Virus record (IMG/VR): IMGVR_UViG_3300006028_000002
Location: 24,064-88,063 of that record
Origin: a virus
Strand: one strand, 5' to 3'
DNA: 64,000 nucleotides
Under the pieces are notes generated by a model. That model saw nothing but the letters and a program-made list of their open reading frames with translations. It did no database searches and had not been told where the DNA came from. Positions 47,227 through 62,164 of this stretch are shown here, piece after piece; positions within the stretch are counted from its first letter, which is position 1; each line of letters opens with the position of its first letter. Position numbers and translations under genes: made by a program.

Positions 47227-47354
47227 ACCGGCGGCCATCCTTTCGCTTACTCGGTGGACCGCCGGAGATGGCGGATTGAGGATCGCAATACAGCGGCAGC
47301 CGCTGCGGGCAAGAAAGGGCCACACACTGTGGCCGATAAATCAAAAGCGTCTAG

Positions 47355-48269
47355 TTAGTCTTCGGCAGCCAGCAGCGCAGCATGCACCAGGCCGATCGAG
47401 CGACCCATCCGCACCGGCTCGACGTCCACCGGGGCCCCGTTGCTGCGTACCGCGTTGGTCTGCTCCAACGGCCGGAAACGCCGGTCCAGAGCGCGCCACG
47501 CGGATCGAGCGGCGGCCTCCGGCCAGTCATCAACCTGATCGATCATCCGGCGGGCGCGCTCCCCGATGTGCGTCCGCGGGTTGGCCCCGAAATTGACCGC
47601 CGAAACGTCGCCGGCATGCAGGTCCAGCTCCATCAAGGTGAACTCGCTGAAATCAGCCGACCATTGGCCGTCCACCAGCATGGCGGCGAAAGACATCTGA
47701 TCTACGCACCCGTCACGGATACCGGTGATCAGGTTTCGGACGTCGGTGCGCTCCGGGTTGAGCCACGCCTCGGCCGTCAAGCCCTCCGGGCCACTGGACA
47801 GCGACAGGGAGCCGGCCCTGGTCCTCGCCATCGTCAAACCTTCATGATTGACCAAAAACGCTACATCAGGTTGACGCTGAAGGGACGCGCTGAAAGCGTC
47901 GCGAGAAACCCGCTCCGTGTAGGGACCGTAAAAATCCCACATCTCATAGGGCGTTTCGGTGACACTCGCCACGCCGGACAGATGAATCCATTCAGCGTTA
48001 AGATCTGGAGAATCCCCCGCTGCGGCACGCTCCCAGAATTGTTTGCCCCCGCAGGCGCAGATCACCGAATCCTCGCTGCACGAGCACGCGCGCTTGGCGA
48101 GAAACTCTTTTTTGGCGGTCATCGCACTGCGGAATGTGAGAACCCGCGGTGTGTCCACGTCCACCGGCATGCGGCGCCGAGCCCGGCTGATGTCCGCACT
48201 ACCGGTCCCGTTCATCAGAGCGTCCCGGCGGGCCAGTGCTGCGCTCTCCCGGGAAATCGTCGTATCCAT
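47355..48269 (-). CDS. HK97-family prohead protease
   Basis: FLVNHEG, QMSFA, DVSAVNFGANP; RBS agggag. Confidence 0.9.
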   Translation of the reverse strand: MDTTISRESAALARRDALMNGTGSADISRARRRMPVDVDTPRVLTFRSAMTAKKEFLAKRACSCSEDSVICACGGKQFWERAAAGDSPDLNAEWIHLSGVASVTETPYEMWDFYGPYTERVSRDAFSASLQRQPDVAFLVNHEGLTMARTRAGSLSLSSGPEGLTAEAWLNPERTDVRNLITGIRDGCVDQMSFAAMLVDGQWSADFSEFTLMELDLHAGDVSAVNFGANPRTHIGERARRMIDQVDDWPEAAARSAWRALDRRFRPLEQTNAVRSNGAPVDVEPVRMGRSIGLVHAALLAAED

Positions 48270-48321: not shown

Positions 48322-48573
48322 CTATGAGCTTGCTGATCCGCTGGACGCGGCAGACGGTGTGGATGGCGCGTCATCATCGTCACCATCGGGCTCAGTGTCA
48401 TTGTCCGGTGGATTAAGAAACCCGGGGGCACCGAAAAACCCTTTTTCTTTTTCCTTGTCTTTCGCCGCGCATTCAGCGCAACAACCGCACCCCCGGCACA
48501 CGTGCGCACGCCCGGCCGCAGTCATACCTCGCCGGGTCACGCTGCGCATCATCGGTCTACTGGCGCGGCGCAT
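48322..48573 (-). CDS. Arg-leader/acidic-tail family member A
   Basis: MRRASR...HVCR then CGCCAEC and an acidic APSTPS tail. Confidence 0.65.
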   Translation of the reverse strand: MRRASRPMMRSVTRRGMTAAGRAHVCRGCGCCAECAAKDKEKEKGFFGAPGFLNPPDNDTEPDGDDDDAPSTPSAASSGSASS

Positions 48574-48575
48574 GG

Positions 48576-48938
48576 CTATGAGCCCAGCTCATCGAACCAA
48601 TTCATCACGGCGCCCTGGTGCTCCTCCTCGCCGGGCATCTTCTCAGCCTCGCGACCCGCTTCTTTGGCCTCTTTTTCCTCAGTACCGATCAGCTCGGCGG
48701 GTGATTCCGGACCGTCCCCGCCGCCGTCCGGGCCTTTTTCGCTCGGTGTGGTGGGTGCGCCCGAGTCATTCGGTGCGGACGTCTCGGCGTCCTGTACATC
48801 GGCCAACGTGGCGCGGGACACCACACCCGGCGGGAGAACCACCGTATACCGGTGCACCGGGGCCGCTGCCACTCGCGCAGCCTTGGCGGGGGTAAGGCGT
48901 TGCACCGGGACAGTGCCGGCGCGCTGGTGCTTATCCAT
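48576..48938 (-). CDS. Arg-leader/acidic-tail family member B
   Basis: RBS aggag; APVHR; LADVQDA..APNDSGAPTTPS. Confidence 0.7.
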   Translation of the reverse strand: MDKHQRAGTVPVQRLTPAKAARVAAAPVHRYTVVLPPGVVSRATLADVQDAETSAPNDSGAPTTPSEKGPDGGGDGPESPAELIGTEEKEAKEAGREAEKMPGEEEHQGAVMNWFDELGS

Positions 48939-48963
48939 GGTCTCTAACTCCTGGGGGTTGTCT

Positions 48964-49194
48964 TTACTCGTCCGGGATTTCTGCCTCATCGAGGCACGGT
49001 GCGCCGCCCTGCATCTGATTGAGGTCCACCCAGGCCGCGCCGGGGGCATGTCGGGTAGGGGTCATCGGGATACCTGTGCTGTTGGGTGCTGCGTGCGTGG
49101 CATCCTGGAAATCGGCCAACTCGCGATGGACCCGGGAACCGGATACAGCTCTGCGCGCCGGGGCCCCGGTGCTGCGCTGGGTGGGTCGTTTCAT
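48964..49194 (-). CDS. Arg-leader/acidic-tail family member C
   Basis: MKRPTQR...SRVHR; LADFQDA..APNSTGIPMTPT; ATGA overlap. Confidence 0.7.
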   Translation of the reverse strand: MKRPTQRSTGAPARRAVSGSRVHRELADFQDATHAAPNSTGIPMTPTRHAPGAAWVDLNQMQGGAPCLDEAEIPDE

Positions 49195-49724
49195 GACGGA
49201 TTGCCTTTCTTGTCGGGGAAATCCACACCCGGGACGGGTGCCGCATCCGGTGGGAATTTGTGCGGTTCGCCCTCGGTGAGATCGCCCGCGCTCGGGGCCG
49301 CCTCCGGGGGGTGTGTCAACTCGGGTGTCTGCACCTGGGAAGGGGGAACAGGCGCCGCGTCCGGTGGTTCCATGCCCGGAATCCGATAATCCGGTTTCTG
49401 ATCATCTGATTCTTTTTCCACGTATCCGCTGGTGGGATCATCGGGATCCGGTTTCGATCCCTCCGGTATATGCAACGGTGCCGGATTGTCCGCGTCGGTC
49501 CGTTCCTCATCCGCCGAGCTGTCCTCAGTTTTCGGGTGGGTCGACTGGAGAAAAGGATCATCATCAGAGGGTGTGGTGGGCACGTCGTCACTGTTGGCCA
49601 GCGGGGGCGCTTCCACGCCTTGTGCCGCGCGATGCACCGGGGCACCCGGTATAGCTCGAACCACCGGCACCCCGCGCCGGGTCACCCGCCGGGGTACGCG
49701 GCTACGCGTAGTGTGTGGCGCCAT
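49191..49724 (-). CDS. Arg-leader/acidic-tail family member D
   Basis: MAPHTTRSRVPRR...APVHR; VPTTPS; internal PP(D/E)AAP repeats. Confidence 0.7.
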   Translation of the reverse strand: MAPHTTRSRVPRRVTRRGVPVVRAIPGAPVHRAAQGVEAPPLANSDDVPTTPSDDDPFLQSTHPKTEDSSADEERTDADNPAPLHIPEGSKPDPDDPTSGYVEKESDDQKPDYRIPGMEPPDAAPVPPSQVQTPELTHPPEAAPSAGDLTEGEPHKFPPDAAPVPGVDFPDKKGNPS

Positions 49725-50991
49725 TAGTCGCCCCCCGATCTCCCACCGCTGGATGGGTCGGCTTAAACGGTTCGGGCTTATCAGGCGACATATCAGGGGG
49801 TTTCCCCATCGGCATCGGGCCACGGGTCGGCCAGAACCGCTCGAACTCGGCGATCTGCGCATCCGTCATCGGCGGCAGATCTTCCATCAACCGGGCCTCG
49901 GACGGGGCCAGCACCCGGGATTGGATGCGGTGCGCCACCACTTCCGCGCGAGTCGCCGGGTCCATGCGCAACAGCGAGTCGGTGTCGAGACGCACAAACT
50001 GCCTGTTAGGCAACAGTTTGTTGAGCGAGTTCTCTCGGCGCCGGATCGCCGGGCCTAGGCTCATAATAAGTAGTTGCAGGTTGCGTTGCACCACATTGGC
50101 GTACGTCACGCTACTGCCAGAAATAGCCGCGTCAATCAGATCGGCCGGGCAGTCCAAGAATCGGGCGATCTCGGCCAGCCCGATGCTGCGCGCCTCCAGC
50201 CATTCCATGCCGGTCTGTTCGGCCTGGATGAGTTTGTATTCCCAGTCTTTACCGGTGACCAGCACATCGCCGGAGCGAATGCTTTCCTTAGCGCGGGCCT
50301 TGATTTCCTCGGCCTGTAAATTGGTCAGAGTCGGCAGCACCGTATTCTGCATATGGCCCCGCGGAATGCCACCACTCGTAAACCAGGAAATGGCGAAATC
50401 CTGTATAGAGAGGTGTTCCCCGATGCACCATGCCGCGTACATCAAGGGGGACAGACCTAAATGAAAACCGGGCACCGTGTATTGCTTCTCATGCCAGATC
50501 TGATCCGGTCGGTATGATTTACCACGGATCATGTATTCCACAAGTACGTTATCGATGACGTTGACGCTCACCCAGGCCAGAGGCACCAGCTCAATCTCAG
50601 CAGGCAGGCCATAACCATTGCGCTGGGTGATGATCCCTATCGTGTTCCCCGCGCGGTCCAGGTCGAATTGCGTTCCCCACATAAACTCCAGATAGTCGAC
50701 CTCCTGGCCGCCCGGGTTGAGGATCACCGGGGGTGTCTCCACCTTGACGTGGGGCAAACCGTATTGCGCGCGGCGGAACACATCCACCGGCATCGTACTG
50801 ATCAGGTTAGCGCGCAGCCGCAAACACGCCCACACCGCCGAATGCCGTAGCGCGGATTCTGAGTTAATCATGTGGCCGGGGGCGATCTGCATACCCAGCC
50901 GATGCGGTATCACGTCACTGGCAGAAGCACCAGGAAACTCGCCCCAGTACGGTCCCTCGATGTTCGCGGTGCGTTTGAAAAACAGGCCCAC
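49702..50991 (-). CDS. HK97-family portal protein
   Basis: ALRHSAVWACLRL, GLSPL, EIARFLDCP, SEARLMEDLPP. Confidence 0.92.
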   Translation of the reverse strand: MGLFFKRTANIEGPYWGEFPGASASDVIPHRLGMQIAPGHMINSESALRHSAVWACLRLRANLISTMPVDVFRRAQYGLPHVKVETPPVILNPGGQEVDYLEFMWGTQFDLDRAGNTIGIITQRNGYGLPAEIELVPLAWVSVNVIDNVLVEYMIRGKSYRPDQIWHEKQYTVPGFHLGLSPLMYAAWCIGEHLSIQDFAISWFTSGGIPRGHMQNTVLPTLTNLQAEEIKARAKESIRSGDVLVTGKDWEYKLIQAEQTGMEWLEARSIGLAEIARFLDCPADLIDAAISGSSVTYANVVQRNLQLLIMSLGPAIRRRENSLNKLLPNRQFVRLDTDSLLRMDPATRAEVVAHRIQSRVLAPSEARLMEDLPPMTDAQIAEFERFWPTRGPMPMGKPPDMSPDKPEPFKPTHPAVGDRGATNGATHYA

Positions 50992-51016
50992 AATTCCCGC
51001 CTGCCTTTCCAGTTAG

Positions 51017-51373
51017 CTACTCTTTGGCCAGCCAGGCGAATCGCCACCACGTGCGCACGATCACCGAGGGCACCTGCGGGATGTCTTTCGATCGAGTAAC
51101 CGGTGGTCGGCCCGGTGGCGCGGGTTGTGTCGCGCCAGCGCGTCCACCGAGCCAGTCCCCGAGCCAGCCGGCGGCCAGCAGCACCGCCCCGGCCATCACC
51201 AGAAACCCGGGCCAGCGCACCAGCTCAAATGCGGCGATCCCGAGCCCGGCGGCGATCGCCACCACCGCGGCCAGCTCCAGACACAGGATCACGATCTCGT
51301 GCACCAGGGGGGACAGCGTTGGCCGACCCTGGGTGGTGCGGCCCGGATGCAGGTCAGTGACAGCCGTGGTCAA
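51017..51373 (-). CDS. 2-TM membrane protein between terminase and portal
   Basis: Hydrophobic pair; typical position. Confidence 0.65.
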   Translation of the reverse strand: MTTAVTDLHPGRTTQGRPTLSPLVHEIVILCLELAAVVAIAAGLGIAAFELVRWPGFLVMAGAVLLAAGWLGDWLGGRAGATQPAPPGRPPVTRSKDIPQVPSVIVRTWWRFAWLAKE

Positions 51374-52866
51374 TGCACACTCTCCAGCACGTTGTAAGTG
51401 GGTGCGGCGTAACGCACCAGGCCGTACAGCGCCTCAGCAACTACCGTGACCGGGGTGATGTCCGCTGCGCTGACCATGCGACCGAACGCCCAGCCACCGT
51501 CGCCCACATTGCGCTTACGCGCCGCCCTGATTGCCGAGGTGACGCATTCCTGGCCGAGGTGGCGTAGTTGATCCCGGGTCGACACCGCTTTGAGCAGATG
51601 CCCGCACGCCTGGCTCAACTCAGCGCCTTTGATCGGGGTGATGCCGGGATCCCCGGTGGGGGTGACCCCGATGCCGGCTTTGATCAGTGCGGGCAGTAGC
51701 GCGCCGGCCGGTCCGGAGGTGTCCACCATCCAGAGGGTGGGGCCCCACACCGCGTCCAGTTCTTTCGCGCGGGACACCATCCAGTCGATGCCCCGGCGGT
51801 GATCCAGCTGCCCGTCTTTGTTGGTGATCTCCACATGAGGGATCCGGTCGGCGCGATAGCCGGCGACCCCGATGGCCCCGCTGGTCAGTCCCTCGGCCAC
51901 GTCCAACGCGAACACGAGCCCGCCGCGGGGTTGGCTGTCCGGATCCACCAGGGACAGCCAGGCGCCCAGGTGGATGATCGCCATGCCGCCCGGGTCATCC
52001 CAGGCGCAGAGCACCTCGCGGTCAAACTCGGCGGCATCCATGCTGCGCAGTGCGCGGCGCATCGTGTTGAAAGTGACTCGATCGCCCAATGCGGGGTTGG
52101 CCTGCGCCCAGGCTATGGGCATCTGCCGCACGTAATCGGGTGCGTCGTGGAAAGCGTCATCTACTGACCACTCATAGTAGGCCAGTTCCGGCTCTTGATT
52201 GATGCCGCGCATCCGAACCTGACGCAGTGCGGTGGAATTCGCCATGCCCGCCATCGACACGTACCATATCTGCCAATTACTGCGGGCAAACATAATAGGC
52301 ATCATGGCGCCGACCATTTCATTGGTAAGCGCGAAAGCCTCATCGAAAAATATGATGTCATATCCGGCCCAACCACGGGCCGCAGAGGATGTGCGAGCAA
52401 CAAAATCTATTCGAGCGCCGTTTTTGAGGCTGATGCTCTGTTCCTCATTGCTCATGCGGATCTGTTTAACCTCTTGATCGAGGCCCGGCACCGACTCGAT
52501 GCGCCACTGGATGCGCTCGCGGATCTTGCGGCTGGTGGCCATGAGGTGCGAGGTGTAGACCATTTTGTACTGCCGTAGAAACAGCCCGTTGAGGGTGGCG
52601 ATCTCCACACAGGCGCCTTTGCCGCTCTGTCTGCCCACCACCAGACCGACCTCGGGGGCCGTCCAGTTGCCTTGCTCATCCATACCCAGTGCACCGTCCA
52701 GCACCCGGCGCTGCCACGGGTCGGCAATCAATCCGGAGAGCTCGGCCAGCTCACAGGCTTCCGGGCCGGATGTCTTGAGGTAGGGGGGCACCAGTTCAAT
52801 TCGCGGTGCCTGGTCACCCCGCAGATTCGCCCATCTGTCGGCGCCTGCGCTCGCGGAGTTCATCAA
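51370..52866 (-). CDS. terL: Terminase large subunit
   Basis: DPWQ, GRQSGKG Walker A, FFDEAF Walker B, WAQANPALG, FALDV nuclease. Confidence 0.93.
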   Translation of the reverse strand: MMNSASAGADRWANLRGDQAPRIELVPPYLKTSGPEACELAELSGLIADPWQRRVLDGALGMDEQGNWTAPEVGLVVGRQSGKGACVEIATLNGLFLRQYKMVYTSHLMATSRKIRERIQWRIESVPGLDQEVKQIRMSNEEQSISLKNGARIDFVARTSSAARGWAGYDIIFFDEAFALTNEMVGAMMPIMFARSNWQIWYVSMAGMANSTALRQVRMRGINQEPELAYYEWSVDDAFHDAPDYVRQMPIAWAQANPALGDRVTFNTMRRALRSMDAAEFDREVLCAWDDPGGMAIIHLGAWLSLVDPDSQPRGGLVFALDVAEGLTSGAIGVAGYRADRIPHVEITNKDGQLDHRRGIDWMVSRAKELDAVWGPTLWMVDTSGPAGALLPALIKAGIGVTPTGDPGITPIKGAELSQACGHLLKAVSTRDQLRHLGQECVTSAIRAARKRNVGDGGWAFGRMVSAADITPVTVVAEALYGLVRYAAPTYNVLESVH

Positions 52867-53107
52867 GTGGACTCCGTTCCGGCATGACGTCCGGTGCCGG
52901 CGGCATCCTCAGCCGTTCCCAGCGGTCGGTGAGCTTGCGCAGATCGGCCAGCGCAAGGCGTACCTGGGACGCGGCCGGGTTATGACCCTCATCGAACCGC
53001 TGGGCGCAGCGCCGGCCCATCTCGATGAGACCGCACGCACTGTTGCGCACATCCGGGGGGAGCTGGGCTACCTCGCGCTCGAAAGCATCTGCCAGACTAT
53101 CGTCCAT
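52814..53107 (-). CDS. terS: Terminase small subunit
   Basis: Position; SPLDELRERRRR C-terminus; RBS aggag. Confidence 0.7.
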   Translation of the reverse strand: MDDSLADAFEREVAQLPPDVRNSACGLIEMGRRCAQRFDEGHNPAASQVRLALADLRKLTDRWERLRMPPAPDVMPERSPLDELRERRRRQMGESAG

Positions 53108-53147
53108 GATCCCGTCACTCCTGTTGCATATTCCCGGCCTCACCGCC

Positions 53148-53333
53148 ATGCAACGCCCGCCGCAACACGTCTGCCACCCGCCCGAGAAAGGTAGCGAGGG
53201 GGAACTGTGGCGATGTTTCTGCGGATATCGCTGGCGTTGCGCGCGACCCAATTCATGGACCACCAACCGCGGCGCTGTTGTGTTTCCCGCAGAATGGCGC
53301 AGGTATCGTTGGCCTTGGCCTAGACTTCCCTGA
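53148..53333 (+). CDS. Small Cys/Trp-rich protein (antisense)
   Basis: HVCHPP...GELWRCFCGYRW. Confidence 0.5.
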   Translation: MQRPPQHVCHPPEKGSEGELWRCFCGYRWRCARPNSWTTNRGAVVFPAEWRRYRWPWPRLP

Positions 53334-53356
53334 CTTTATAAACGGTTTACCCTAGT

Positions 53357-53788
53357 TTACGTATCTTTTGCCAACTTGGCGATCAGTTCATCCTGCGCAA
53401 ACAAATGTGCCTGAAGTTGCAAAGACTCGTGCAACAATGCTTCTGCATCATTAAACGTATCTAAAGCTCGCTTATCCGCTGCCGATGCCTGAACGGACTG
53501 ACCCACCAAAATGATTGACAGCAGGACCAATTGCAGGAAAGTCTGAGCGATCCACTGCACGATACCGAGCACACCCTGATGAATAGCCCCCGGTAAACCC
53601 ACCAACGCAATGGCACCGAACAGATACGCGCAGGTCATGGAGCCCACGAAACCTGTAATCTTCACCGCCAACCGAGCATTACACCTCGCATAAGCGGTAG
53701 AGGTGTCGTACTGGTCATTTACCCGCGCCGGGTCTCGGTGCCGGCGTCGAGCGCGCTGCGGGTGCGGCGTGTAGGTAAAGAGACTCAT
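53357..53788 (-). CDS. Membrane protein (DUF1003-like)
   Basis: NARLAVKITGFVGSMTCAYLF...QTFLQLVLLSIILVGQ. Confidence 0.75.
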   Translation of the reverse strand: MSLFTYTPHPQRARRRHRDPARVNDQYDTSTAYARCNARLAVKITGFVGSMTCAYLFGAIALVGLPGAIHQGVLGIVQWIAQTFLQLVLLSIILVGQSVQASAADKRALDTFNDAEALLHESLQLQAHLFAQDELIAKLAKDT

Positions 53789-53823
53789 CCGTATCCTGTC
53801 CCCCGGGCGCTCGTTAACGCTCC

Positions 53824-55218
53824 ATGAGATTCCCCCGCGAGCACGCTGATTATCACCCCGACATCATTGGACCGCTGCGCGTCATCGAGTTTTCCCGGCT
53901 CGGTGATGAAGTCTATCTCGACTACACGGGCGCCGCACTCTATCCGGAGTCACTGGTCATGGATCACTTGTGGGATCTGCGCGGTAACGTATATGGCAAT
54001 CCGCATTCCGACTCACCGGCCAGCCAACGCGCTACCGAGATAATGTCCACGGCACGCGCTGCGGTACTGCGATTCTTTAACGCCGACCCCGATGAATACA
54101 CCGTGGTATTCACCGCGAATGCCACAGCGGCCATGCAACTGGTGGGCTTATCATATCCGTTCCAGCCAGACAGTCTGTTTCTCTACACCGCCGATGTACA
54201 CAATTCGGCGCTCGGGTTGCGGGAACTAGCTCGGGACATCAAATGCACGGTAGGTTACCTGCCGCTGCAATCGGATCTGCGGGTCTCCGATACCGAGGCG
54301 ATGCTGACCCTCAACTCCCATGCGGGTGGGCTGTTCACATACCCGGCGCAATGCAATTTCAGCGGAGTACACCATCCCCTGTCGTGGATCAACGCGGCAC
54401 ACAATCTGGGCTGGCGGGTGCTGCTGGACGCTGCTGCGTTCGTGCCCACCAACCCGCTGGATCTGCGCAGGTTCCCGGCTGATTACGTCGCGGTCAGCTT
54501 TTATAAGATCTTCGGTTATCCCAGCGGCATCGGGGCTCTGATCGCTCGTCGCGAGGCGCTGGAGGAGTTGCAGCAACCCTGGCACGCCGGGGGCAGCACC
54601 CGGGCCGCCTCGGTGGCCGGCGACTGGTACCACCTGGCCGCTGGAGCGGACGCGTTCGAGCACGGCACCGTCAACTATCTGGCCGCCGCCGCCGTCACGC
54701 GAGGGCTGGAGTACATCAGCGCACTCGGGCTGGCCCAGATCCATGACCGGGTGCAGCTGTTGACCGGCTGGACGCTGGCTGAGCTGGCGAACCTGCATCA
54801 CAAGGGGGGCGAGCCCCTCATCCGGCTCTACGGTCCGCTCGGGATCGAGCAACGCGGGGCTGCCATCACTTTTAATCTGCTCGATCCCTCCGGCGCACCG
54901 GTTGACGAGCGGATCGTGGCAGCCCGGGCGCGCGAGCAGCACATCTCGCTGCGCACTGGATGCTTCTGTGCGCCCGGTGCCGCCGAGACGGCGTTTGCGC
55001 TCGATCCGGCCGATCTGGTGGCCGCGGGGGAGCTGCCGGCGGACGCGCCCATGGACGCCTATCTGGACACCCTGGGCATGCCCACCGGGGGCGCCATCCG
55101 GATCAGCTACGGGCTGGCCAGCAACGCCGCAGACGCCGAGCGTTTTCTGGAGTTCGCAGCCACGTTCGCCGATGCGCGGCCAAGCGAGGACAACCTACCG
55201 GCCCGAGTACATTGCTAA
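53824..55218 (+). CDS. Class V PLP enzyme, molybdenum cofactor sulfurase-like (NifS-like domain only)
   Basis: YLDYTGA, GNPHS, FTANAT, HNS, DAAAF, SFYKIFGYP (PLP Lys), LRTGCFC. Confidence 0.9.
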   Translation: MRFPREHADYHPDIIGPLRVIEFSRLGDEVYLDYTGAALYPESLVMDHLWDLRGNVYGNPHSDSPASQRATEIMSTARAAVLRFFNADPDEYTVVFTANATAAMQLVGLSYPFQPDSLFLYTADVHNSALGLRELARDIKCTVGYLPLQSDLRVSDTEAMLTLNSHAGGLFTYPAQCNFSGVHHPLSWINAAHNLGWRVLLDAAAFVPTNPLDLRRFPADYVAVSFYKIFGYPSGIGALIARREALEELQQPWHAGGSTRAASVAGDWYHLAAGADAFEHGTVNYLAAAAVTRGLEYISALGLAQIHDRVQLLTGWTLAELANLHHKGGEPLIRLYGPLGIEQRGAAITFNLLDPSGAPVDERIVAARAREQHISLRTGCFCAPGAAETAFALDPADLVAAGELPADAPMDAYLDTLGMPTGGAIRISYGLASNAADAERFLEFAATFADARPSEDNLPARVHC

Positions 55219-55296
55219 GTCGTGTCGCTCGGGTGGGGCTTCCTGGTGGCCGGTGGCCTGACCACGCTGGTGCTCGTGCTGCGGTGCTGGTGAGAT

Positions 55297-55449
55297 CTAG
55301 CGGGTGCACACCACCGTGTAGCCGGCATCGTTGAGCACCCGCAACACATGCCAGGCCAGATCCGCGCTGATGCCATGTGTCAACGTATTTTTGCTAACGC
55401 CCTCGGTCAGCGCGCGAACCACGTCATCTGAGTCGGCGGCTTTCGTCAT
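55297..55449 (-). CDS. Hypothetical protein (50 aa)
   Basis: ATGA overlap; ...VLNDAGYTVV. Confidence 0.5.
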   Translation of the reverse strand: MTKAADSDDVVRALTEGVSKNTLTHGISADLAWHVLRVLNDAGYTVVCTR

Positions 55450-55682
55450 CCCGTCCACCGTTCCCTCCCATCGGCGTGCCGGATACGCAGGCCGAATCCA
55501 GTATGCGTGACTGGCGCGCTCACCCGCTCCGTGATCGGTCCCGGGGTCTCACCCTCTGGCTGAGGTTTAGGCTTGCCCTCCGGTTTGGGCTCGAGGGCAA
55601 CCGGTACCGGAGGTGGCGCCGAGTTACCCAGCACCTCCAGCGACACCGGGACAAGCCCGAACAATGACAGGGTGATTTTCAT
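55446..55682 (-). CDS. Hypothetical protein
   Basis: MKITLSLFG...GFG; TGATG overlap. Confidence 0.55.
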   Translation of the reverse strand: MKITLSLFGLVPVSLEVLGNSAPPPVPVALEPKPEGKPKPQPEGETPGPITERVSAPVTHTGFGLRIRHADGRERWTG

Positions 55683-55837
55683 CAGACCACCAGCACGGCA
55701 AAACAGAATGCCAGGATAAAGAGCACCACGGCCAAGATAATCGATATCATGGATGGTGTCGGACCCGGCAACAAATGTGCTGCGGCGAAAAACACCAACC
55801 CCAGCGCGATAAGCGCCGGATAAAGCGCAGCGTGCAT
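55682..55837 (-). CDS. Small 2-TM protein (51 aa)
   Basis: RBS aggagg; MHAALYPALIALGLVFF... Confidence 0.6.
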   Translation of the reverse strand: MHAALYPALIALGLVFFAAAHLLPGPTPSMISIILAVVLFILAFCFAVLVV

Positions 55838-55849
55838 GCTCACCGCCTC

Positions 55850-55966
55850 CTAACCGAATATCCCGTGCAGAATGCCCAGCATAGCTGCGGTGAATAGCAC
55901 GAAAACAAGAATCAAGAGCATCGCCTGGCACAACTCACGGCACCAGTCAAACCAGCGCGACTCCAT
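55850..55966 (-). CDS. Small 1-TM protein (38 aa)
   Basis: TGATG overlap; MESRWFDWCRELCQAMLLILVFV... Confidence 0.5.
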   Translation of the reverse strand: MESRWFDWCRELCQAMLLILVFVLFTAAMLGILHGIFG

Positions 55967-56163
55967 CAGTCTTGATCAAACGGCGCAACGTTGGTGTCCG
56001 ACTCCGGATCATTGTCACCGCCGTCAAACTTCCCACGATCAACATCTGGCGCTGCGCCACTGTCATCCGCGTCGCGAACCACGCCGGGTCGCCGCACCGC
56101 CCGACCAAGCACCCCACGGCGCCCTGGGGGCACCGCACTACGCCTGCTAGCACCCGGACGCAT
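55966..56163 (-). CDS. Arg-leader/acidic-tail family member E
   Basis: RBS aggagg; MRPGASRR...GVVR then DADDS. Confidence 0.7.
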   Translation of the reverse strand: MRPGASRRSAVPPGRRGVLGRAVRRPGVVRDADDSGAAPDVDRGKFDGGDNDPESDTNVAPFDQD

Positions 56164-56332
56164 TCGCGCCACCTCCTGCTGCATCGTCGTCGCCGTCATC
56201 GTCGCGGGTCACCTGCGGAGTGGCATCGGCAGCCGCCTCATCCGCCCGAGTCGTCCACTGGCCACCGCGGATAGGCCGCCGGGTATGCAGCGGCACCGCA
56301 CTGCGCAGACTACGCACACCGGTCCGTTTCAT
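56147..56332 (-). CDS. Arg-leader/acidic-tail family member F
   Basis: MKRTGVRSLR...WTTR ADE...QVTR DDD; TGATG overlap. Confidence 0.65.
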   Translation of the reverse strand: MKRTGVRSLRSAVPLHTRRPIRGGQWTTRADEAAADATPQVTRDDDGDDDAAGGGANASGC

Positions 56333-56601
56333 CAGTCATCATCATCCTTTTTTGGAATGGTGTCGTTATCGTGGTCGGTGTCGTCGTCCTTTTTCTCGTC
56401 TTCGGCGCGAGCCTCCAGGGCCTCTTTACCGTCTTTGTGCTCGTCGCTCTGTTTCGGATCTTTATCTTTATCGTCACTGTCGTCATCGGCACGGCGGACC
56501 GGAATGCTCACCGGGGCACTACGGGTTGTCTGCACCGCTGGCGACTGGCGCGTCACAACGCGCGGAATCGCATTACGACTGACTGCTGTTGTTCGTTTCA
56601 T
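56332..56601 (-). CDS. Arg-leader/acidic-tail family member G
   Basis: MKRTTAVSR...IPVRR then ADDDSDDKDK; RBS agggga (alternative start 56685). Confidence 0.7.
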   Translation of the reverse strand: MKRTTAVSRNAIPRVVTRQSPAVQTTRSAPVSIPVRRADDDSDDKDKDPKQSDEHKDGKEALEARAEDEKKDDDTDHDNDTIPKKDDDD

Positions 56602-56681
56602 GTCGTCCCCTAAAGCTAATCGTGACCACCGGGTGGACTTATAGCGCGTACTCGGCGGCATGGTCGGCATCCCGCGGATAG

Positions 56682-56855
56682 TCATGCACTACTCGCTGAG
56701 CTGGCCCGGCCGATGTTGACTTCCGCAGCGGGTGTCCCCAGTGGGTGTTCCGCCTTCTCCTGCATCAACAGGTGCGCCTGATGTGTATCCCCATGCGCAT
56801 CCGGGTAACGGGTGACGATGCTGCGGCGCTGCTGACGCCCGGTGGATCGCCTCAT
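56682..56855 (-). CDS. Arg-leader family member H (57 aa)
   Basis: RBS aggagg; MRRSTGRQQRRSIVTR YPDAHGD; ATGA overlaps both sides. Confidence 0.6.
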   Translation of the reverse strand: MRRSTGRQQRRSIVTRYPDAHGDTHQAHLLMQEKAEHPLGTPAAEVNIGRASSASSA

Positions 56856-57364
56856 GCTGATGCCTCCTGCCAGTTATCGCCGATACCAAACATGACCGCC
56901 TGAGCCAAGCCCAACCAACCCGCGCTCGGCAACGTCATGTGCTCGCCGTTGATGACGAGTGCCTCCAGCTCAGCCCGGCTGATGTGCAGCTCGGTAACCA
57001 GCACGCCGGCCACGTAGTCGAGGGTCGCGGCGGACGGGGCCCGGGACAACCGATAGCGGTACAGCCGCCGGAGCAGCTCGATCGGCTCGCCCAGATAGGT
57101 CAGGCCAGCGTAATTGCGCTCCGGAGCGAACCCCCAGGGCACCAGCACGACCGCCCAGCGGCCGGAACTCTCCGCCGAACCGTAGAGGGCCTGGCACTGG
57201 CCGGCGTGGCGCGCATCCGGCTCATTGGCATACAGCGCGCGCATCTGGCTCTGGGCCGAGTCCTCTGAATCGTGGCACGCGATGATCTCACCAGAGCCAC
57301 TCTTGATGACGGCCCACGGTTTCGCTGGCGGACAGTCGTCGGACCGCTCCACTTTCCACGGCAT
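56852..57364 (-). CDS. Head-morphogenesis-associated hypothetical protein
   Basis: MPWKV...WAVIK...ACHDSEDSAQSQMRALYANE; RBS ggag. Confidence 0.65.
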   Translation of the reverse strand: MPWKVERSDDCPPAKPWAVIKSGSGEIIACHDSEDSAQSQMRALYANEPDARHAGQCQALYGSAESSGRWAVVLVPWGFAPERNYAGLTYLGEPIELLRRLYRYRLSRAPSAATLDYVAGVLVTELHISRAELEALVINGEHMTLPSAGWLGLAQAVMFGIGDNWQEASA

Positions 57365-57368
57365 CGCT

Positions 57369-57617
57369 TTAGTCTCCGCCCACCGGGGCACCAGGGCCAG
57401 CGCACAAGCCAAAACAATCTTTAAGACCCATGGACCCTAAAATGGTGTCGTCCTGTTTAATCTCGCTTCCTTCGGCAAGCTCGCCCTCTTCTTTCCGACC
57501 TTTCGGCTCATCAAAACCGAATTTAGTAATCGAGGCGCCCGTGCTCGGTAACTGGCGTGCCATGCCACGTCGGGGCGCACCCAGTGATGCTCGAGAAGTA
57601 CTACGCCGCATGGACAT
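57369..57617 (-). CDS. Arg-leader/acidic-tail family member I
   Basis: MSMRRSTSR...PRRGMAR; acidic middle; TGATG overlap. Confidence 0.6.
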   Translation of the reverse strand: MSMRRSTSRASLGAPRRGMARQLPSTGASITKFGFDEPKGRKEEGELAEGSEIKQDDTILGSMGLKDCFGLCAGPGAPVGGD

Positions 57618-58000
57618 CACCCACTACCATCAGGATTGTGATCGCCGTGGCCGATGTAATACGCGAGACTCGGATCGGATTCTTTCATCGCCTCCGGATC
57701 CTCCGCATATTTGGCGTCCAGCATGTCCGCGTTGGAATTAGGATCCGGCGGAGGTGACAAACCCATATCCTGAGCCGCATCACGGCACAACTGTCCCCGA
57801 GAGCCGGCCCGCTCCGGATCCTCACCATTGCCCCGGTCATCGTGGGCCTCACCGTTCGGTCCGGTAGAGGGCACCGATCCGGGGGGCGCGTCCGCGTCAT
57901 CGTCCACCCAGAACTTATCGCCCCGGCGCAGCGCGACACGCACAACAGGGCGCCCGGTAGAGGTTCGACGCATTCCGGGTATCGCGGTGGTCCGTCTCAT
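57617..58000 (-). CDS. Arg-leader/acidic-tail family member J
   Basis: RBS agggag; MRRTTAIPGMRR...VALRR then GDKFWVDDDAD. Confidence 0.7.
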   Translation of the reverse strand: MRRTTAIPGMRRTSTGRPVVRVALRRGDKFWVDDDADAPPGSVPSTGPNGEAHDDRGNGEDPERAGSRGQLCRDAAQDMGLSPPPDPNSNADMLDAKYAEDPEAMKESDPSLAYYIGHGDHNPDGSG

Positions 58001-58012
58001 GAGGGCTCCCTT

Positions 58013-58219
58013 TTAATACCAGCTGTTGAGTGGGTCATCGCCCTTGGACTCCTCGCCCGCAAGCTCGTCACCGCTGCCCATGGTGCCAGGGGACACATCC
58101 GACTCGAATGGCTCGTCTGATTCGCCAAAAGCGTTATATGTGCGCCGCACCCGGACATCCTGTACTCGCCGGCTGACCAAACCCAGCGCCCGGTTTCTGG
58201 CAACATTGTTTCGGCGCAT
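58013..58219 (-). CDS. Arg-leader/acidic-tail family member K
   Basis: RBS gagga; MRRNNVARNR...VRVRR then TYNAFGESDE. Confidence 0.7.
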   Translation of the reverse strand: MRRNNVARNRALGLVSRRVQDVRVRRTYNAFGESDEPFESDVSPGTMGSGDELAGEESKGDDPLNSWY

Positions 58220-58480
58220 CTAGTCCTCGATCCTCACGACTCGGTAACGCTCCGCTGATTCGGCGAACACCCCGGACGCATTTGTATTACTCAAACTGAT
58301 GCACAGCACATCATCAGCTAAGCGTGCGTAGACCTGGCCCACAAACACACCGTTACGAAAATGCGCCTCACCAAACCCGTACTCATCCAACCATTCACTC
58401 AAGATGCTCACGGCTACCAGCTGCGGGACGCGAGGCCCCGGGTCTCCCAGATCGGGCGGACGCGCCGGGTCGGATGCCAA
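58220..58480 (-). CDS. Hypothetical protein
   Basis: Fits operon; start uncertain. Confidence 0.5.
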   Translation of the reverse strand: MASDPARPPDLGDPGPRVPQLVAVSILSEWLDEYGFGEAHFRNGVFVGQVYARLADDVLCISLSNTNASGVFAESAERYRVVRIED

Positions 58481-58764
58481 CCCAGCCTGCGGCGCAGATC
58501 ATTCGACAGCCGCACATTGCAGCCGAAATGACAGGGGGTGTGATTCGCCGGGTCCATGGGGTCGCCGCCGATCCACAACTCGACAATGTGGTGCACGGTC
58601 GGGGCCATCGGATGCCGCGGGTTGATCTTACGCAGGCCGTAGTCGATGCGACCCCCGCAGCCATAACAGGGCGTGGCATTGAGCTCGCCGGCCTCCAGAC
58701 AGGCATTCTGCGCTTTGTACCAGCGGTGACCTTTGCGCCCGGCCGAGGGATACGCGGTAGCCAT
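58414..58764 (-). CDS. Packaging-type HNH endonuclease
   Basis: CYGCG..ID, TVHHIV, GGDPMDPAN, HFGCN. Confidence 0.85.
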   Translation of the reverse strand: MATAYPSAGRKGHRWYKAQNACLEAGELNATPCYGCGGRIDYGLRKINPRHPMAPTVHHIVELWIGGDPMDPANHTPCHFGCNVRLSNDLRRRLGWHPTRRVRPIWETRGLASRSW

Positions 58765-58799
58765 TGCGCACCCCCGGGTAAGTCCAAGATCATTTTGAA

Positions 58800-59020
58800 C
58801 CGCACAATTTTAGTCCAGAGATTTTAAGGCATAGGGATAGCACATCCTCGATCGCGAACTCTAAAAAAACGAAAACATTTAACGCCCGCGTCGCGATCAT
58901 GAAACAAAGTATTATCCCCACCGCGCTCATTACCCTATGTAATGTCACCCTGAGTAGCAGTGGAAAGAGTCACGAAACGTAACTACCCACGTTTGGTAAT
59001 TGGTTTTCCAGCCCAGCTTG
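58800..59020. other. AT-rich non-coding region, candidate cos/packaging site
   Basis: GATCGCGA...TCGCGATC inverted repeat (58850-58898) around an A7 tract; next to HNH. Confidence 0.35.
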
Positions 59021-59045
59021 CTAGCGCACCGCTGCTGCGGCCATG

Positions 59046-59441
59046 TCACGTAGCGTCATCAGGGCCAGAGTCGTAGCTGGTGGTGCTCTCAGTATCCAGG
59101 TGGTTGTGATCTGCGGAGTTGCCCGAGTTGGACACACCAGGCACCTGTACCTGGTCGGCAGCGTCGTTGGTGAAGCTGTAGCTGAACTCGCGGCGCGCCA
59201 TGGGGCGCCCATCACCCAGCAGTAGCGCCGCAGCAGCGGCACCAGCACCCAGGCCGGCTGACTGCCAGTCCACCGACTCCTGCTCATGCGTACCAGGACG
59301 CGCCTCGCCGGTACGGCCCGCGGCGACTGCTGCTGACGCGCTCGGCAGCGTGGGATCGACGTCACTAGGTGTGGTCGGTGGGTGTCCGCCGCGCCGCATC
59401 GGCGTGCGCACGGTGGATCGGTTTGCCCGGGTGTATCGCAT
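59046..59441 (-). CDS. Arg-leader/acidic-tail family member L
   Basis: RBS gaaagg; MRYTRANR...PMRR; GHPPTTPS; EARPGTHEQES. Confidence 0.7.
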   Translation of the reverse strand: MRYTRANRSTVRTPMRRGGHPPTTPSDVDPTLPSASAAVAAGRTGEARPGTHEQESVDWQSAGLGAGAAAAALLLGDGRPMARREFSYSFTNDAADQVQVPGVSNSGNSADHNHLDTESTTSYDSGPDDAT

Positions 59442-59525
59442 TGCGATCACGCCTTTCCGCTGTATGACTATGCAGCGCGCAGTGCGCACCCCACCAGGAA
59501 TCCACGATACTGTAGACATATCGTG

Positions 59526-59534
59526 TGCTAGAAT
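59526..59534 (+). promoter_or_regulatory. Extended -10 for leaderless recombinase transcript
   Basis: TGC-TAGAAT 7 nt before ATG 59542. Confidence 0.55.
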
Positions 59535-59541
59535 TTGTCAC

Positions 59542-60528
59542 ATGGAGATCCTCCCGGCACCCATGCCGGACCACGAAACCACGCGCCTGTCCACCATTGA
59601 GACCGCGGCTAAAGCTCTACTCAATTCAGACCTAGCCGAGAACAGCCGCCGAGCGTTCGCCACCGACTGGCGCCACTGGCAACAATTTTGCGCAAACGAA
59701 AACATCGACCCGCTATGCGTATCCTCTGGCCTGCTGGTTGCGTTCGTAACCTGTCTTGCACACGACACGCCAGCCCGCAAAGCTCAATCGCCCGCCACTC
59801 TCCAGAGACGGCTAGCAGGAGTACTGCACGGATGGAAGCAAGCCGGGTGCACCATTCCACACGCAATTAGCGCCGACGCGCTCCGCATCATCCGCTCCTA
59901 CGAGCGAAACCTACGTCGAGAAAACCTCCCCACCGGACGCGGTAGCGCTCCGGCGATCACCATTGATGACCTACGCAAAATCTCTGCGACTTGTCCCAGC
60001 TCACTCGCGGGGATGCGCGACCGAGCATTAATTTTGCTTGGTTTCGCTATCGGAGCTCGCAGATCTGAGTTGGCCGCGCTGCTCGTCACCGATATCAAAG
60101 TCACAGACGAGGGATTAGTCGTAACCCTCCGAGACTCCAAAACCGGATATCGACAACCCCACGTACTGCCTGGCACCGATGGGCTGACCTGTCCCGTACG
60201 CGCCTGGCTAGCTTGGCGCTTCGCTGCGGAGCTTACTGAAGGGTCTGCATTTTGGATGGTGAACAAACACGGAGATCTTGTCCGACCACTGACCCCGCAG
60301 GCAGTCGGCAACATCGTCACTCAAGCGGGCAACCGGGCAGGATGCGCCGCGCGGTTCACTGGGCACTCGCTACGAGCTGGACTGGCCACCGAGGCGCGCA
60401 AGGCCGGGCACGACCGCTGGGCCATCGCAGACCAGGGCGGATGGCAACGCAACTCAGCCGTGCTCGACAGGTACATACAGATCGTAGATCGCTGGTCCGA
60501 CAACGCACTCAAGGGGATAGGTCTCTAA
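59542..60528 (+). CDS. Cre-like tyrosine recombinase
   Basis: AENSRRAFATDW, RDRALILLGFAIGARRSEL, SKT, HSLRAG, QGGW, RY. Confidence 0.9.
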   Translation: MEILPAPMPDHETTRLSTIETAAKALLNSDLAENSRRAFATDWRHWQQFCANENIDPLCVSSGLLVAFVTCLAHDTPARKAQSPATLQRRLAGVLHGWKQAGCTIPHAISADALRIIRSYERNLRRENLPTGRGSAPAITIDDLRKISATCPSSLAGMRDRALILLGFAIGARRSELAALLVTDIKVTDEGLVVTLRDSKTGYRQPHVLPGTDGLTCPVRAWLAWRFAAELTEGSAFWMVNKHGDLVRPLTPQAVGNIVTQAGNRAGCAARFTGHSLRAGLATEARKAGHDRWAIADQGGWQRNSAVLDRYIQIVDRWSDNALKGIGL

Positions 60529-60530
60529 GT

Positions 60531-60714
60531 TCAGTCGCGCGGCGGCTGGTGCTAGCATGCCCGCCGAGCGGTAGGAGTCCGCTCGCAGTGAACAGCAGTG
60601 GAAGTGGTGACGGCCACCTCAGTGGCAGCAGGCCAGGGCTGTATGGATGCGCCCATGTCAACGGCGCTACCGGGAAGGCCCTGGCCTTTCCCATGGGCGT
60701 GCGCACGCGACCGA
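60531..60714. other. Highly structured non-coding element (candidate ncRNA or recombination site)
   Basis: Closing stem 60531-41/60704-14 enclosing four hairpins. Confidence 0.45.
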
Positions 60715-60769
60715 GAGAGAATCTACGGGGCGAAGCACTCACCCGCGCTGATCAGCAACGATGCACTGA

Positions 60770-60952
60770 CTAAATGTCCAGCAGGTCCACGCAGTTGGCC
60801 AGGTTGACCAGGCCGGATCCCCCGCAGTTGGTGAACTCGTGATGGTGGCTGTTTTCGGTGATCGGGCCACTGTTGGTGGTGTCGGCAGCCGCGTACGCTG
60901 CACCGCCCAGCATGAGGCCAGCCACCAGGGCAGCACTCAGCAAAATCCTCAT
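60770..60952 (-). CDS. Small secreted peptide with Cys pair
   Basis: Signal peptide MRILLSAALVAGLMLGGAAYAAA; CGGSGLVNLANCVDLLDI. Confidence 0.7.
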   Translation of the reverse strand: MRILLSAALVAGLMLGGAAYAAADTTNSGPITENSHHHEFTNCGGSGLVNLANCVDLLDI

Positions 60953-61027
60953 CGGTGTCACCCTTCAGTCGCGGACCGTCGAATTGATCGGAACGGATAA
61001 GATCAGTACCCCGCGCCCAGTGCGGAA

Positions 61028-61333
61028 TCACGCAACCGGGGCAGAAGGCGCCGCGGAAACGGGCGGAGTGACCGGTATCGGCATCGTCGTCACTACCGGG
61101 GCCGGCATCGGGGTTGGGCTCGCGGTGGCTTTAATCGCCGCATGGCTGGCGGTAATGGTGGCCAGCTGTCCGGCGCCGCTCACATGCGCTTTGAATCCGC
61201 TCACCGTACCCGCGATCGTGGTCTGCGCCGGGTCCATGCCAAGACTGCGGCAGGCGGCGATGAAATTCTCCAGATCGGCCAGCGTGAGCGCGCCAGAATC
61301 GCTGCCCTCAGACAAGCTGCGCATCTGACTCAC
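61028..61333 (-). CDS. Hypothetical protein
   Basis: GALTLADLENFIAAC; GTGA overlap. Confidence 0.55.
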   Translation of the reverse strand: MSQMRSLSEGSDSGALTLADLENFIAACRSLGMDPAQTTIAGTVSGFKAHVSGAGQLATITASHAAIKATASPTPMPAPVVTTMPIPVTPPVSAAPSAPVA

Positions 61334-61536
61334 CGGCCGAAATGCACATTGATGCTCGGCATGACGTCACTGAGGAAACTTTCTTCCTCATGCGTACCGG
61401 GTGCAGCCTCATCCTCGCGCGCTTTGATTTTAAGCGCCTCGGTGGGCGTAGTGGGCGCATGCCCCGAGCTTCCGGCACTACCGCGAGCAGTCGATGACAC
61501 ACCGCGTCGCCCGGCAACACCCGATGATCTGCGCAT
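61330..61536 (-). CDS. Arg-leader/acidic-tail family member M, paralog of L
   Basis: MRRSSGVAGRR; GHAPTTPT; EAAPGTHEEES. Confidence 0.7.
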   Translation of the reverse strand: MRRSSGVAGRRGVSSTARGSAGSSGHAPTTPTEALKIKAREDEAAPGTHEEESFLSDVMPSINVHFGR

Positions 61537-61615: not shown

Positions 61616-61789
61616 TCAGTCGTCCCAGCACCAGCGATTCTCCCAGCAGAACCGGCGCCAGTTCCAGCAGCACTGGTAATGCCCGCGGTGGTGCTGCGGC
61701 CGGCGCCAGCGGTCATCACGGTCGTGGTCGTGATCGTTGCGCCCGCCGAGCGAGTTCAGGCCCATAGTGAAGGCGTCAGAAACCTGCAT
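61616..61789 (-). CDS. Small Trp/Cys/Arg-rich peptide (57 aa)
   Basis: RBS gggag; MQVSDAFTMGLNSLGG...YQCCWNWRRFCWENRWCWDD. Confidence 0.6.
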   Translation of the reverse strand: MQVSDAFTMGLNSLGGRNDHDHDRDDRWRRPQHHRGHYQCCWNWRRFCWENRWCWDD

Positions 61790-62164
61790 CGTGCGACTCT
61801 CCCCGTCGTAGGTTGCGTGCCACGTCGAGTATCGCGCGAGCACCGCTGACAGTTACCTGCGTTCCAGCTCTATGTCAGCTGGTGGCGAACCACCCTCACG
61901 GCAAACGTGTGACCTGCGTCACAAAAGCACCTGGGCAGGTATCAACAGAGTGGACAACACCATCAACCACAACAGCAACTCAGCCGTGACCACCAGCAGA
62001 CCCAACGCAAGCACCCGGCACACCCACACGTCACACACCCCCGCCGCTCGCTCGCTACAGGGGTTTGCGCCGCTGGTCAGGGACCACTACGCCGGCGAAA
62101 TCAAGATCAGATGAGGGATCGCTCAGCCAGTCAGAAGTGACAACACTTCGATCCTGGCTTCCCA

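Follow-up and report, generated by a model that had tools for sequence, protein, structure and literature searches.

Thirteen small genes with basic heads and acidic tails around the head and packaging genes of an HK97-like siphovirus: candidate load-and-cut head proteins

Introduction

Why would a phage keep thirteen short genes around its head and packaging genes that all encode an Arg-rich head followed by an acidic tail? The question is raised by a 64,000-bp stretch of DNA from an uncultured phage (the "window"), which covers bases 24064-88063 of the 88,063-bp IMG/VR virus record IMGVR_UViG_3300006028_000002 (rated 100% complete, G+C content about 61%). It is established that T4-like and P1-like myoviruses deliver accessory proteins by load-and-cut, and a first interpretation of the window (the sequence-only reading) had regarded the heads as one shared encapsidation tag that is removed by the prohead protease. 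Here we provide evidence that the thirteen open reading frames (ORFs) are real genes, that some of them share a motif with a rare family of disordered head-module proteins, and that the join between head and tail resembles a probable cutting site of the capsid protein, which suggests that the proteins may be loaded into the forming capsid and cut. This T4-like scenario is partly supported by sequence comparison for four of the genes and less so for the other nine.

Results

All thirteen genes (a to m) are located on the minus strand. Genes a-d lie between the genes for the portal protein and the prohead protease, and genes e-m lie upstream of the terminase gene. Coordinates below refer to the window and a slash marks the join of head and tail.

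a, 48322-48573, minus strand: 83 amino acids (aa); head MRRASRP...HVCR/G; Cys-rich patch; acidic tail ending in APSTPSAASS
b, 48576-48938, minus strand: 120 aa from an inner ATG; head ends VVSR/A; LADVQDA..APNDSGAPTTPSE; acidic tail with conserved C-terminus VMNWFDELGS
c, 48964-49194, minus strand: 76 aa; MKRPTQRSTGAPARR..RVHR/E; motif LADFQDA..APNSTGIPMTPT; paralogue of b
d, 49191-49724, minus strand: 177 aa, start moved (the longer ORF overlaps the portal gene); head ..PVHR/A; VPTTPSDDD and PPDAAPVP repeats
e, 55966-56163, minus strand: 65 aa; MRPGASRRS..GVVR/DADD; acidic tail
f, 56147-56332, minus strand: 61 aa; MKRTGVRS..WTTR/ADE; further on QVTR/DDDGDDD
g, 56332-56601, minus strand: 89 aa; MKRTTAVSRNAIPRVV..PVRR/ADDD; D/K-rich tail; counterpart in the closest relative
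h, 56682-56855, minus strand: 57 aa; MRRSTGRQQRRSIVTR/YPDAHGD; tail island DAHxDTxxAHLLxQEKAxHP conserved in the relative
i, 57369-57611, minus strand: 80 aa; MRRSTSRASLGAPRRGMARQ..; without a V-x-R join
j, 57617-58000, minus strand: 127 aa; MRRTTAIPGMRRTS..ALRR/GDKFWVDDD
k, 58013-58219, minus strand: 68 aa; MRRNNVARNR..RVRR/T; tail island FGExDEPFxSDVxPGxMG conserved in the relative
l, 59046-59441, minus strand: 131 aa, start moved; MRYTRANRSTVRTPMRR/GGHPPTTPSD; paralogue of m (PGTHE[QE]ES common to both)
m, 61330-61536, minus strand: 68 aa, start moved; MRRSSGVAGRRG..STAR/GSAGSSGHAPTTPTE; no counterpart in the relative

The thirteen ORFs were recovered where the sequence-only reading had placed them, and their translations indeed consist of a basic head and an acidic tail. 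In seven genes an inner ATG that opens the basic head provides the better start (b 48938, d 49724, e 56163, g 56601, i 57611, l 59441 and m 61536), and with these refined starts all thirteen begin with ATG. Some ten of them carry a purine-rich stretch resembling a ribosome binding site (RBS) 5-15 nt upstream, and in several the start abuts or overlaps the stop of the gene before, which bears out the earlier observation of RBSs or stop/start overlaps for most of the genes. The heads comprise 16-42 aa with 5-9 K/R and 0-1 D/E, and D/E outnumber K/R in every tail (13/13). The reported frequency of MRR and MKR starts also holds, with M[RK]R opening nine of the thirteen proteins vs. none in 20,000 within-head shuffles. 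Heads and tails were scored separately by means of a codon log-likelihood model trained on 19 long genes. For the tails, frame 0 was the best of six in all thirteen cases, with a pooled score of +0.29 bits per codon (0.22-0.53 in the 19 long genes).

As a control for shadow ORFs, the complete 88,063 bp were scanned in six frames for ATG-initiated ORFs of 50 aa or more with the same architecture (K+R>=5 and D+E<=1 in the first 22 aa, net charge <=-4 in the remainder). The scan returned 21 rows, which represent twelve of the thirteen candidates (including alternative starts) and one start inside terL, with nothing on the plus strand and nothing elsewhere in the 88,063 bp; candidate h fell below the tail cut-off. 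Across the six frames there are 23 M[RK]R starts that open a stretch of 50 or more codons without a stop, and twelve of them fall in eleven of the candidates. The basic-then-acidic pattern thus does not arise as often in shadow ORFs, an outcome that would have spoken against the genes, and the architecture is confined to the region around the head and packaging genes. That the thirteen are chance or shadow ORFs which are never translated could be argued from the many long shadow ORFs in this genome and from gene a, the least secure of the calls, which scores -0.1 over the whole ORF, has a weak RBS and lacks a counterpart in the relative. This view is confronted with the frame-0 coding of all tails, the ATG starts (most with an RBS), the lack of such ORFs in other frames and protein-level counterparts that show no DNA similarity; furthermore, gene callers of public sources predicted these proteins too, and the relatives recovered are proteins distinct from them. 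We consider it extremely improbable, and the thirteen ORFs are real genes, not shadows. Even without any mechanism this is of use for annotation, as thirteen ORFs that gene callers may distrust turn out to be real and to fall into definable groups.

The head module surrounding genes a-d follows the order portal protein, S78-type prohead protease and HK97-type capsid protein; terminase lies upstream.

51370-52866, minus strand: terL (Pfam E 7.8e-5)
49702-50991, minus strand: portal protein gene, upstream neighbour of d-c-b-a (Pfam Phage_portal, E 1.7e-40)
47355-48269, minus strand: prohead serine protease (Pfam Peptidase_S78, E 1.1e-19; S78 domain at aa 110-257 of a long ORF)
45805-47325, minus strand: HK97-type capsid gene (Pfam score 0.0018, under the Pfam cut-off)

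The identity of the capsid gene was confirmed by matches of ~29% to annotated major capsid proteins, and its N-terminal delta domain comprises roughly 200 aa. Gene a stands directly upstream of the protease. A Cys-rich patch is found in both, CRGCGCCAEC in gene a (48500-48470, minus strand) and CSCSEDSVICACGG in the N-terminal extension of the protease (48269-47950, minus strand), the latter in some relatives only; these patches may bind metal or form disulfides.

Genes b and c link the window to a larger family. A HMMER search with the b/c alignment against 1.84 billion representatives (E<=0.001) returned only nine proteins, all of 61-120 aa and all sharing M.K..HR..G.P.RR ... LAxxQD..APNxTGxPxTP. 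An IMG/VR DNA-pattern scan for the motif yielded at least 117 stretches, mostly due to chance, and subsequent profile filtering left at least twelve related contigs with portal proteins 63-73% identical to that of the window. In 12/12 contigs among the matches listed a single gene for ~130-190 aa occupies the place between portal and protease (the "gap gene"). A profile search of 5.8 billion clusters identified 29 such proteins (P0010-P0038, including one 78-aa fragment), all of them hypothetical or unnamed and located on contigs of up to 94 kb. This gap family consists of rare disordered proteins of 115-190 aa with a basic head of ~40-50 aa, a join, a K/D/E-rich middle, an AGDxGDFxPMxG block and the C-terminal motif TPAxN[DS]TGxPxTPSG, in which eight residues are invariant. 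In the gap proteins of L004, L029, L055, L060, L069, L086, L095 and L107, the K/D/E-rich middle contains a recurrent short [DE]SLF peptide, and AGDxGDFxPMxG is nearly invariant. ESLF in gap proteins may resemble clamp-binding motifs, and the MKRT.. starts may resemble ribosomal protein L34; neither likeness enters the interpretation given below.

Comparison of the gap family with the b/c family using hhalign gave 93% (E 3.3e-7) over an 18-column motif, APNxTGxPxTP[ST], which is internal in b and c vs. C-terminal in the gap family. Of the motif TPAxN[DS]TGxPxTP[ST], genes d, l and m carry a part (PTTP[ST][DE] only), and it is absent from e-k. A six-frame search for PTTP[ST] gave four exact matches, all of them in b, d, l or m, and the longer form PTTP[ST][DE] is likewise confined to these genes. 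With the gap-family profile, the window returned only marginal scores for g (E 0.02, head and middle) and c (E 0.026). The likeness between window and gap family lies in position (a-d), motif (b, c), architecture and join motif; the difference is that four shorter genes stand in for the single gene, both in the window and in the closest relative (L003). Gene a was considered as a shortened orthologue of the gap gene and rejected, as the similarity is not significant. Judged from the alignments, the most conserved element is the TPAxNxTGxPxTPSG motif and not the leader.

The encoded proteins are predicted to be intrinsically disordered. AlphaFold2 (AF2) models reached a mean confidence (pLDDT) of 52 for a gap protein, with one low-confidence helix at residues 5-19, and of 57 for b, which is almost devoid of secondary structure; the fold score pTM was 0.12-0.13 for both. 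The ESM Atlas' own models score 0.34 and 0.44, and an ESM Atlas search gave no match at >=0.9. Searches of Pfam (all thirteen proteins) and PHROGs (ten of thirteen, without e, h and i), also with five gap proteins and the neighbouring ORFs, returned nothing above noise, and a word-index protein search with b found only b itself. A helical scaffolding protein of the P22 gp8 or phi29 gp7 type was rejected, given no predicted helical or coiled-coil fold and no Pfam or PHROG match, and a Tat or Sec signal was ruled out because in the thirteen translations no hydrophobic stretch follows the Arg-rich head and the next segment is acidic.

The join itself is the candidate protease site. The sequence-only reading had seen the switch at V-x-R in about nine proteins. 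All the strings it listed are present, but when the join is defined blind to V, as the last K/R before the first D/E, V stands at position -2 in seven of thirteen (shuffle p 0.0003) and V/I/L/M in ten. The residue after the join (P1') is A or G in eight (binomial p 0.003), and the complete motif [VLIMF]-x-R-[AG] is seen in six (a, b, d, g, j and l) vs. once per 359 aa in 19 long proteins. In the gap family the join reads [VLF]-x-R-A in 10/10 and 22/24 sequences (one differs, one is a fragment), and its R and A are among the few columns of the N-terminal half that are kept in at least 90% of the sequences. A similar site type recurs in the capsid protein:

46714-46755, minus strand: capsid residues 191-204, VER/SGAQLQR/AVGT, two conserved hydrophobic-x-R-small sites before the N-arm

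The delta domain of the capsid protein thus does end in a comparable LQR/AVGT, as had been noted, and the site type is conserved in relatives. Across 19 capsid proteins the segment before the N-arm (VGTGAFxGLxVPQY) carries [LIV]-x-R-A in 15, with R-A aligned in 17, and [VI]-[ED]-R occurs six to eight residues further upstream in all 19, followed by S, G or A in 18. We propose VER and LQR as maturation cuts. The N-terminal extension of the window's protease carries ISR/A, and [IL]-x-R-[AS] is present at the protease N-terminus in 9/9 members of the gap clade and in 0/6 more distant relatives (L009 has K at the position of Arg). The agreement of join, capsid and protease sites is suggestive.

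Cutting after a basic residue, which the sequence-only reading had taken as established for HK97, is documented for HK97-type capsid proteins. Excerpts of the published work give K103/S104 for the HK97 capsid protein (PMC10275583), R128/L129 for the phi12 capsid protein and K87/Q88 for Ccm (PMC8569155). T4 gp21 is described, again in excerpts, as cutting at L/I-x-E (PMC9026906, PMC3012670), the same layout of hydrophobic residue, any residue and P1 (the residue before the cut) as at the join here. Conservation in the clade extends to the C-terminus of the window's protease, GRSIxLVxxALLAxD (47355-47420, minus strand). In HK97 the protease is targeted through its C-terminal end, and by analogy this peptide is a candidate for a tail that holds the protease in the procapsid.

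Distribution was traced by a portal-based search, which provided 19 related loci (188 kb). A charge-pattern scan of these loci found family-like small proteins only in the closest relative, L003 (contig G001), whose portal is 82% identical to the window's. L003 has four small genes between portal and protease, three of which match d, c and b and one of which is extra; DNA similarity in them is nearly absent (two matches of 29 and 72 nt, in d and b) and core genes are 67-77% identical at the DNA level. Further upstream, G001 harbors another member (L003:3404) in addition to counterparts of h, g and k. Altogether, tblastn on G001 yielded counterparts for six of the thirteen genes (b, c, d, h, k and weakly g), and none for a, e, f, i, j, l and m, with the region fully covered. 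Thirteen members in the window vs. eight on G001 imply fast turnover. For d and g the head is more similar to the relative's counterpart than the tail (55% vs. 35% and 45% vs. 25%, respectively), and for b and c it is the tail that is more similar. Among cultured phages, megablast of 20 kb gave no match, and tblastn of portal and capsid reached only ~29% identity, to Mycobacterium cluster-J-like phages. By tblastn no gap gene was seen in the latter, and the gap protein itself matched no cultured phage.

Discussion

Which role do the thirteen proteins play? We tentatively favor a scenario in which the S78 protease cuts a-d at the join once they have entered the procapsid, as it would the single-copy gap protein, and in which e-m partly share this fate. 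The proteins would enter the procapsid as internal (core or cargo) proteins, with the short Pro/Thr peptide as a docking element and the basic head as an electrostatic one. Of the two, the Pro/Thr peptide is more likely to provide the docking. The prohead protease would then cut after the Arg of hydrophobic-x-R/A or G, a step suggested by motif sharing only, at a site of the same kind as at the border of capsid delta domain and N-arm and near the N-terminus of the protease. The cut would part an Arg-rich peptide from an acidic disordered product, and the latter may be scaffold debris or ejected cargo. Genes e-m could follow the same route, much less certainly; g, j and l show the full join motif, and l and m the PTTP[ST][DE] peptide.

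The closest known system by analogy would be the capsid-targeting sequence (CTS) of T4 with its internal and core proteins, and P1 DarB would come second. Among the T4 proteins described in excerpts of the literature are CTS-tagged, polymorphic internal proteins (IPI, IPII, IPIII and Alt) and the small core proteins gp67 and gp68, which are cut by gp21 (PMC9026906, PMC3012670). In both systems there are several small proteins whose N-terminal part terminates in a hydrophobic-x-P1 site resembling the site of the capsid protein (here a candidate site). Counted as a motif shared with the capsid protein, this ending is found at six of the thirteen joins, in 10/10 and 22/24 gap-family sequences and in 15/19 capsid proteins, where the cut is itself putative. 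Some of the genes are located beside portal and protease in both systems, the T4 order being 20-67-68-21. Gene content differs between related phages in both, with thirteen vs. eight members, one gene or none here and with a polymorphism of the T4 set that is described in excerpts of PMC9026906. In contrast, T4 is a myovirus with a gp21-type protease and Glu at P1, and the phage studied here is HK97-like with an S78 protease and Arg at P1; the CTS is short and conserved, whereas the heads form a class of charge and composition only; and the T4 internal proteins are basic and folded, whereas the products here would be acidic and disordered. P1 DarB, in which the first 30 residues direct proteins into the capsid according to excerpts of PMC9024508, resembles the present case in that accessory proteins are loaded into an HK97-fold capsid by means of an N-terminal signal, and differs in being a 250-kDa enzyme whose loading depends on other Dar proteins; sequence similarity between the two is not to be expected. 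HK97 gp5/gp4, the phi12 capsid protein and SaPIbov5 Ccm share the capsid/protease type and, as far as the excerpts of the cited work go, a basic P1 at the delta-domain cut. The accessible parts of the open-access literature covered T4, SPN3US, P1 and HK97-type work, and none of it dealt with such proteins in actinophages. To our knowledge, neither the HK97 nor the phi12/SaPIbov5 system processes a set of separate small proteins. We would rate the case as an undescribed protein family that carries a variant of the known load-and-cut scheme.

A number of results weigh against load-and-cut. The claim of a shared leader in the sense of a sequence-conserved tag did not survive: the hidden Markov models of the groups do not find each other and leave-one-out mostly fails. 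In the six-frame translation the b/c/d-type head profile matches only b, c and d, and the e-m head profile only its own members. When members of e-m were left out in turn, two of nine were recovered near the top (h at rank 1, E 0.046; m at rank 2, E 0.17) and the others ranked 15th to 1407th. In pairwise alignments against shuffles, only three of 78 pairs exceed Z>5 (b-c 10.0, l-m 8.6 and c-d 5.6). The sequence-conserved N-terminal propeptide, one defining feature of the T4 type, is thus lacking in the thirteen. What the leaders have in common is composition, charge pattern and the M[RK]R start only, and no DNA repeat family lies behind the similarity of the genes. By these comparisons there are two proven paralogue groups (b-c-d and l-m) with weak threads between them and a common architecture, and a single family of thirteen, which fails the cross-group, leave-one-out and pairwise tests, is unproven. 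Codon scores of the heads are non-coding-like (-0.19 per codon, positive in no frame), which reflects their richness in Arg, Ser, Thr, Pro and Val; as a start codon is missing close to where several of the acidic tails begin, and an ATG opens the head, the heads must be translated. Seven of the thirteen joins lack the full motif, in the counterparts on G001 V stands at -2 in only one of eight (V/I/L/M in three of eight), and the motif counts rest on related, non-independent sequences with a site that was defined after looking. More distant relatives (portal 41-52% identical; L005-L021) have a portal-protease gap of 200-500 nt with no such gene, and since they possess the same capsid and protease type, the gap gene is dispensable for assembly. 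Finally, the placement of all thirteen genes around the head and packaging genes holds in a strict sense for a-d, which are part of the head module, but the nine genes e-m have no positional link: two plus-strand genes separate them from the head genes, and nothing like them is present upstream of terL in G003 and G005, which belong to the gap clade.

The main rival to load-and-cut, rather unlikely in our view and still to be taken seriously, holds that the proteins are cytoplasmic effectors for host take-over, anti-defence or nucleic-acid binding via the Arg-rich head, and are not part of the virion. The acidic tails would resemble DNA mimics, the short tail peptide peculiar to each protein would bind a different partner, and the junction motif would merely be the end of the basic block. 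Tail islands that differ from gene to gene (WFDELG in b, FGExDEPFxSDV in k, DAHxDTxxAHLL in h) are what such effectors would show, as are the fast gain and loss of members, with seven of thirteen lacking a detectable counterpart, the leader without sequence conservation and the location of e-m outside the head module. Difficult to reconcile with it are the founder family, which is fixed between portal and protease in all twelve contigs among the matches listed, its junction R-A as one of the few well-kept positions in the N-terminal half, and the match of the junction to the capsid and protease sites.

It is also conceivable, if improbable, that only a-d form a head-module family and that e-m are unrelated, fast-evolving orphans, which look alike by composition because young ORFs at a G+C content of 62% are rich in Arg, Ala, Pro and Gly. 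The non-coding-like heads, the lack of significant similarity among e-k and the absence of e-m-like genes from G003 and G005 fit this view; yet the architecture appears nowhere else in six frames of 88 kb except at the one start inside terL, the shuffles tie M[RK]R to its place at the start, three of the genes (g, h and k) have counterparts in the relative in which heads or islands are conserved, and l and m carry the PTTP[ST][DE] peptide that is otherwise restricted to b and d. The roles of head and tail could, quite improbably, even be reversed, with the Arg-rich heads as the product that stays behind as counter-ions for the packed DNA and the acidic tail as a neutralising pro-piece. The heads indeed carry a charge of +5 to +9 with almost no acidic residue, and in d and g they are the better conserved part. 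However, the opposite applies to b and c, the most conserved element of the founder family is C-terminal, and relatives with the same capsid lack the genes.

An extended version of load-and-cut, which is speculative and in our opinion improbable as a whole, would combine these elements. As charge-diblock proteins, the thirteen could self-associate head-to-tail into a coacervate-like procapsid core that is docked via TPxNxTGxPxTP; a single cut at hydrophobic-x-R/A would dissolve the core, the Arg-rich peptides would stay as DNA counter-ions, and the unfolded acidic parts would either be expelled or leave together with the DNA on ejection, as fast-evolving anti-defence decoys. If true, an HK97-like siphovirus would possess a scaffold-and-cargo system that is phase-separating and switched by a protease. 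The simpler load-and-cut scheme, if true, would be the first case for an HK97-type, actinomycete-type siphovirus. It would also provide a readable site for the S78 protease of this lineage (hydrophobic-x-Arg/Ala or Gly), a function for an unnamed disordered family in the head module of a whole soil-phage clade, and a short tag for putting proteins into such capsids.

Neighbouring genes and additional observations

The run of minus-strand genes is interrupted by two genes on the plus strand:

53824-55218, plus strand: class-V aminotransferase (cysteine-desulfurase-like)
59542-60528, ORF from 59200, plus strand: tyrosine recombinase (Phage_integrase, E 7.2e-17)

The aminotransferase has a counterpart at the same place in L003 (4155-5479; DNA identity 67%), and since its position is kept in the closest relative it is a stable part of this phage lineage. 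The recombinase is divergent from gene l, with ~100 bp between both starts, and the minus-strand ORFs that overlap it (59538-60512) are probably shadows.

The direct terminal repeat annotated for the record (G000) is an exact 50-bp overlap of both ends (window 63951-64000; genome 1-50), to which a circular assembly fits better than a physical terminal repeat. The right end of the window is then not a genome terminus, and a physical genome end beside e-m, as in a T5-like pre-early region, was rejected on account of this overlap. A scan for promoters and terminators was uninformative, with fewer sites than in shuffles.

Three further ORFs deserve mention. Among genes e-m, upstream of the terminase, a 116-aa ORF resembling an HNH-type endonuclease (58414-58764, minus strand; ..HHIVELWIGGDP..CHFGCN..) has a counterpart on the G001 contig. 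A small ORF at 61616-61843 (minus strand) encodes a Trp/Cys-rich C-terminal peptide (..CCWNWRRFCWENRWCWDD), and as this peptide is conserved on the related contig L026 (reverse strand, 1368-1607; ..HWDRWHRWCWDD), the ORF represents a real gene under conservation. A Pro/Thr/Ala-rich ORF of 184 aa (44535-45089, minus strand), which follows the capsid gene three genes further downstream, starts with MADDKTPATPTRE, another P.TP[ST] peptide, and its product could be a decoration or head-tail protein.

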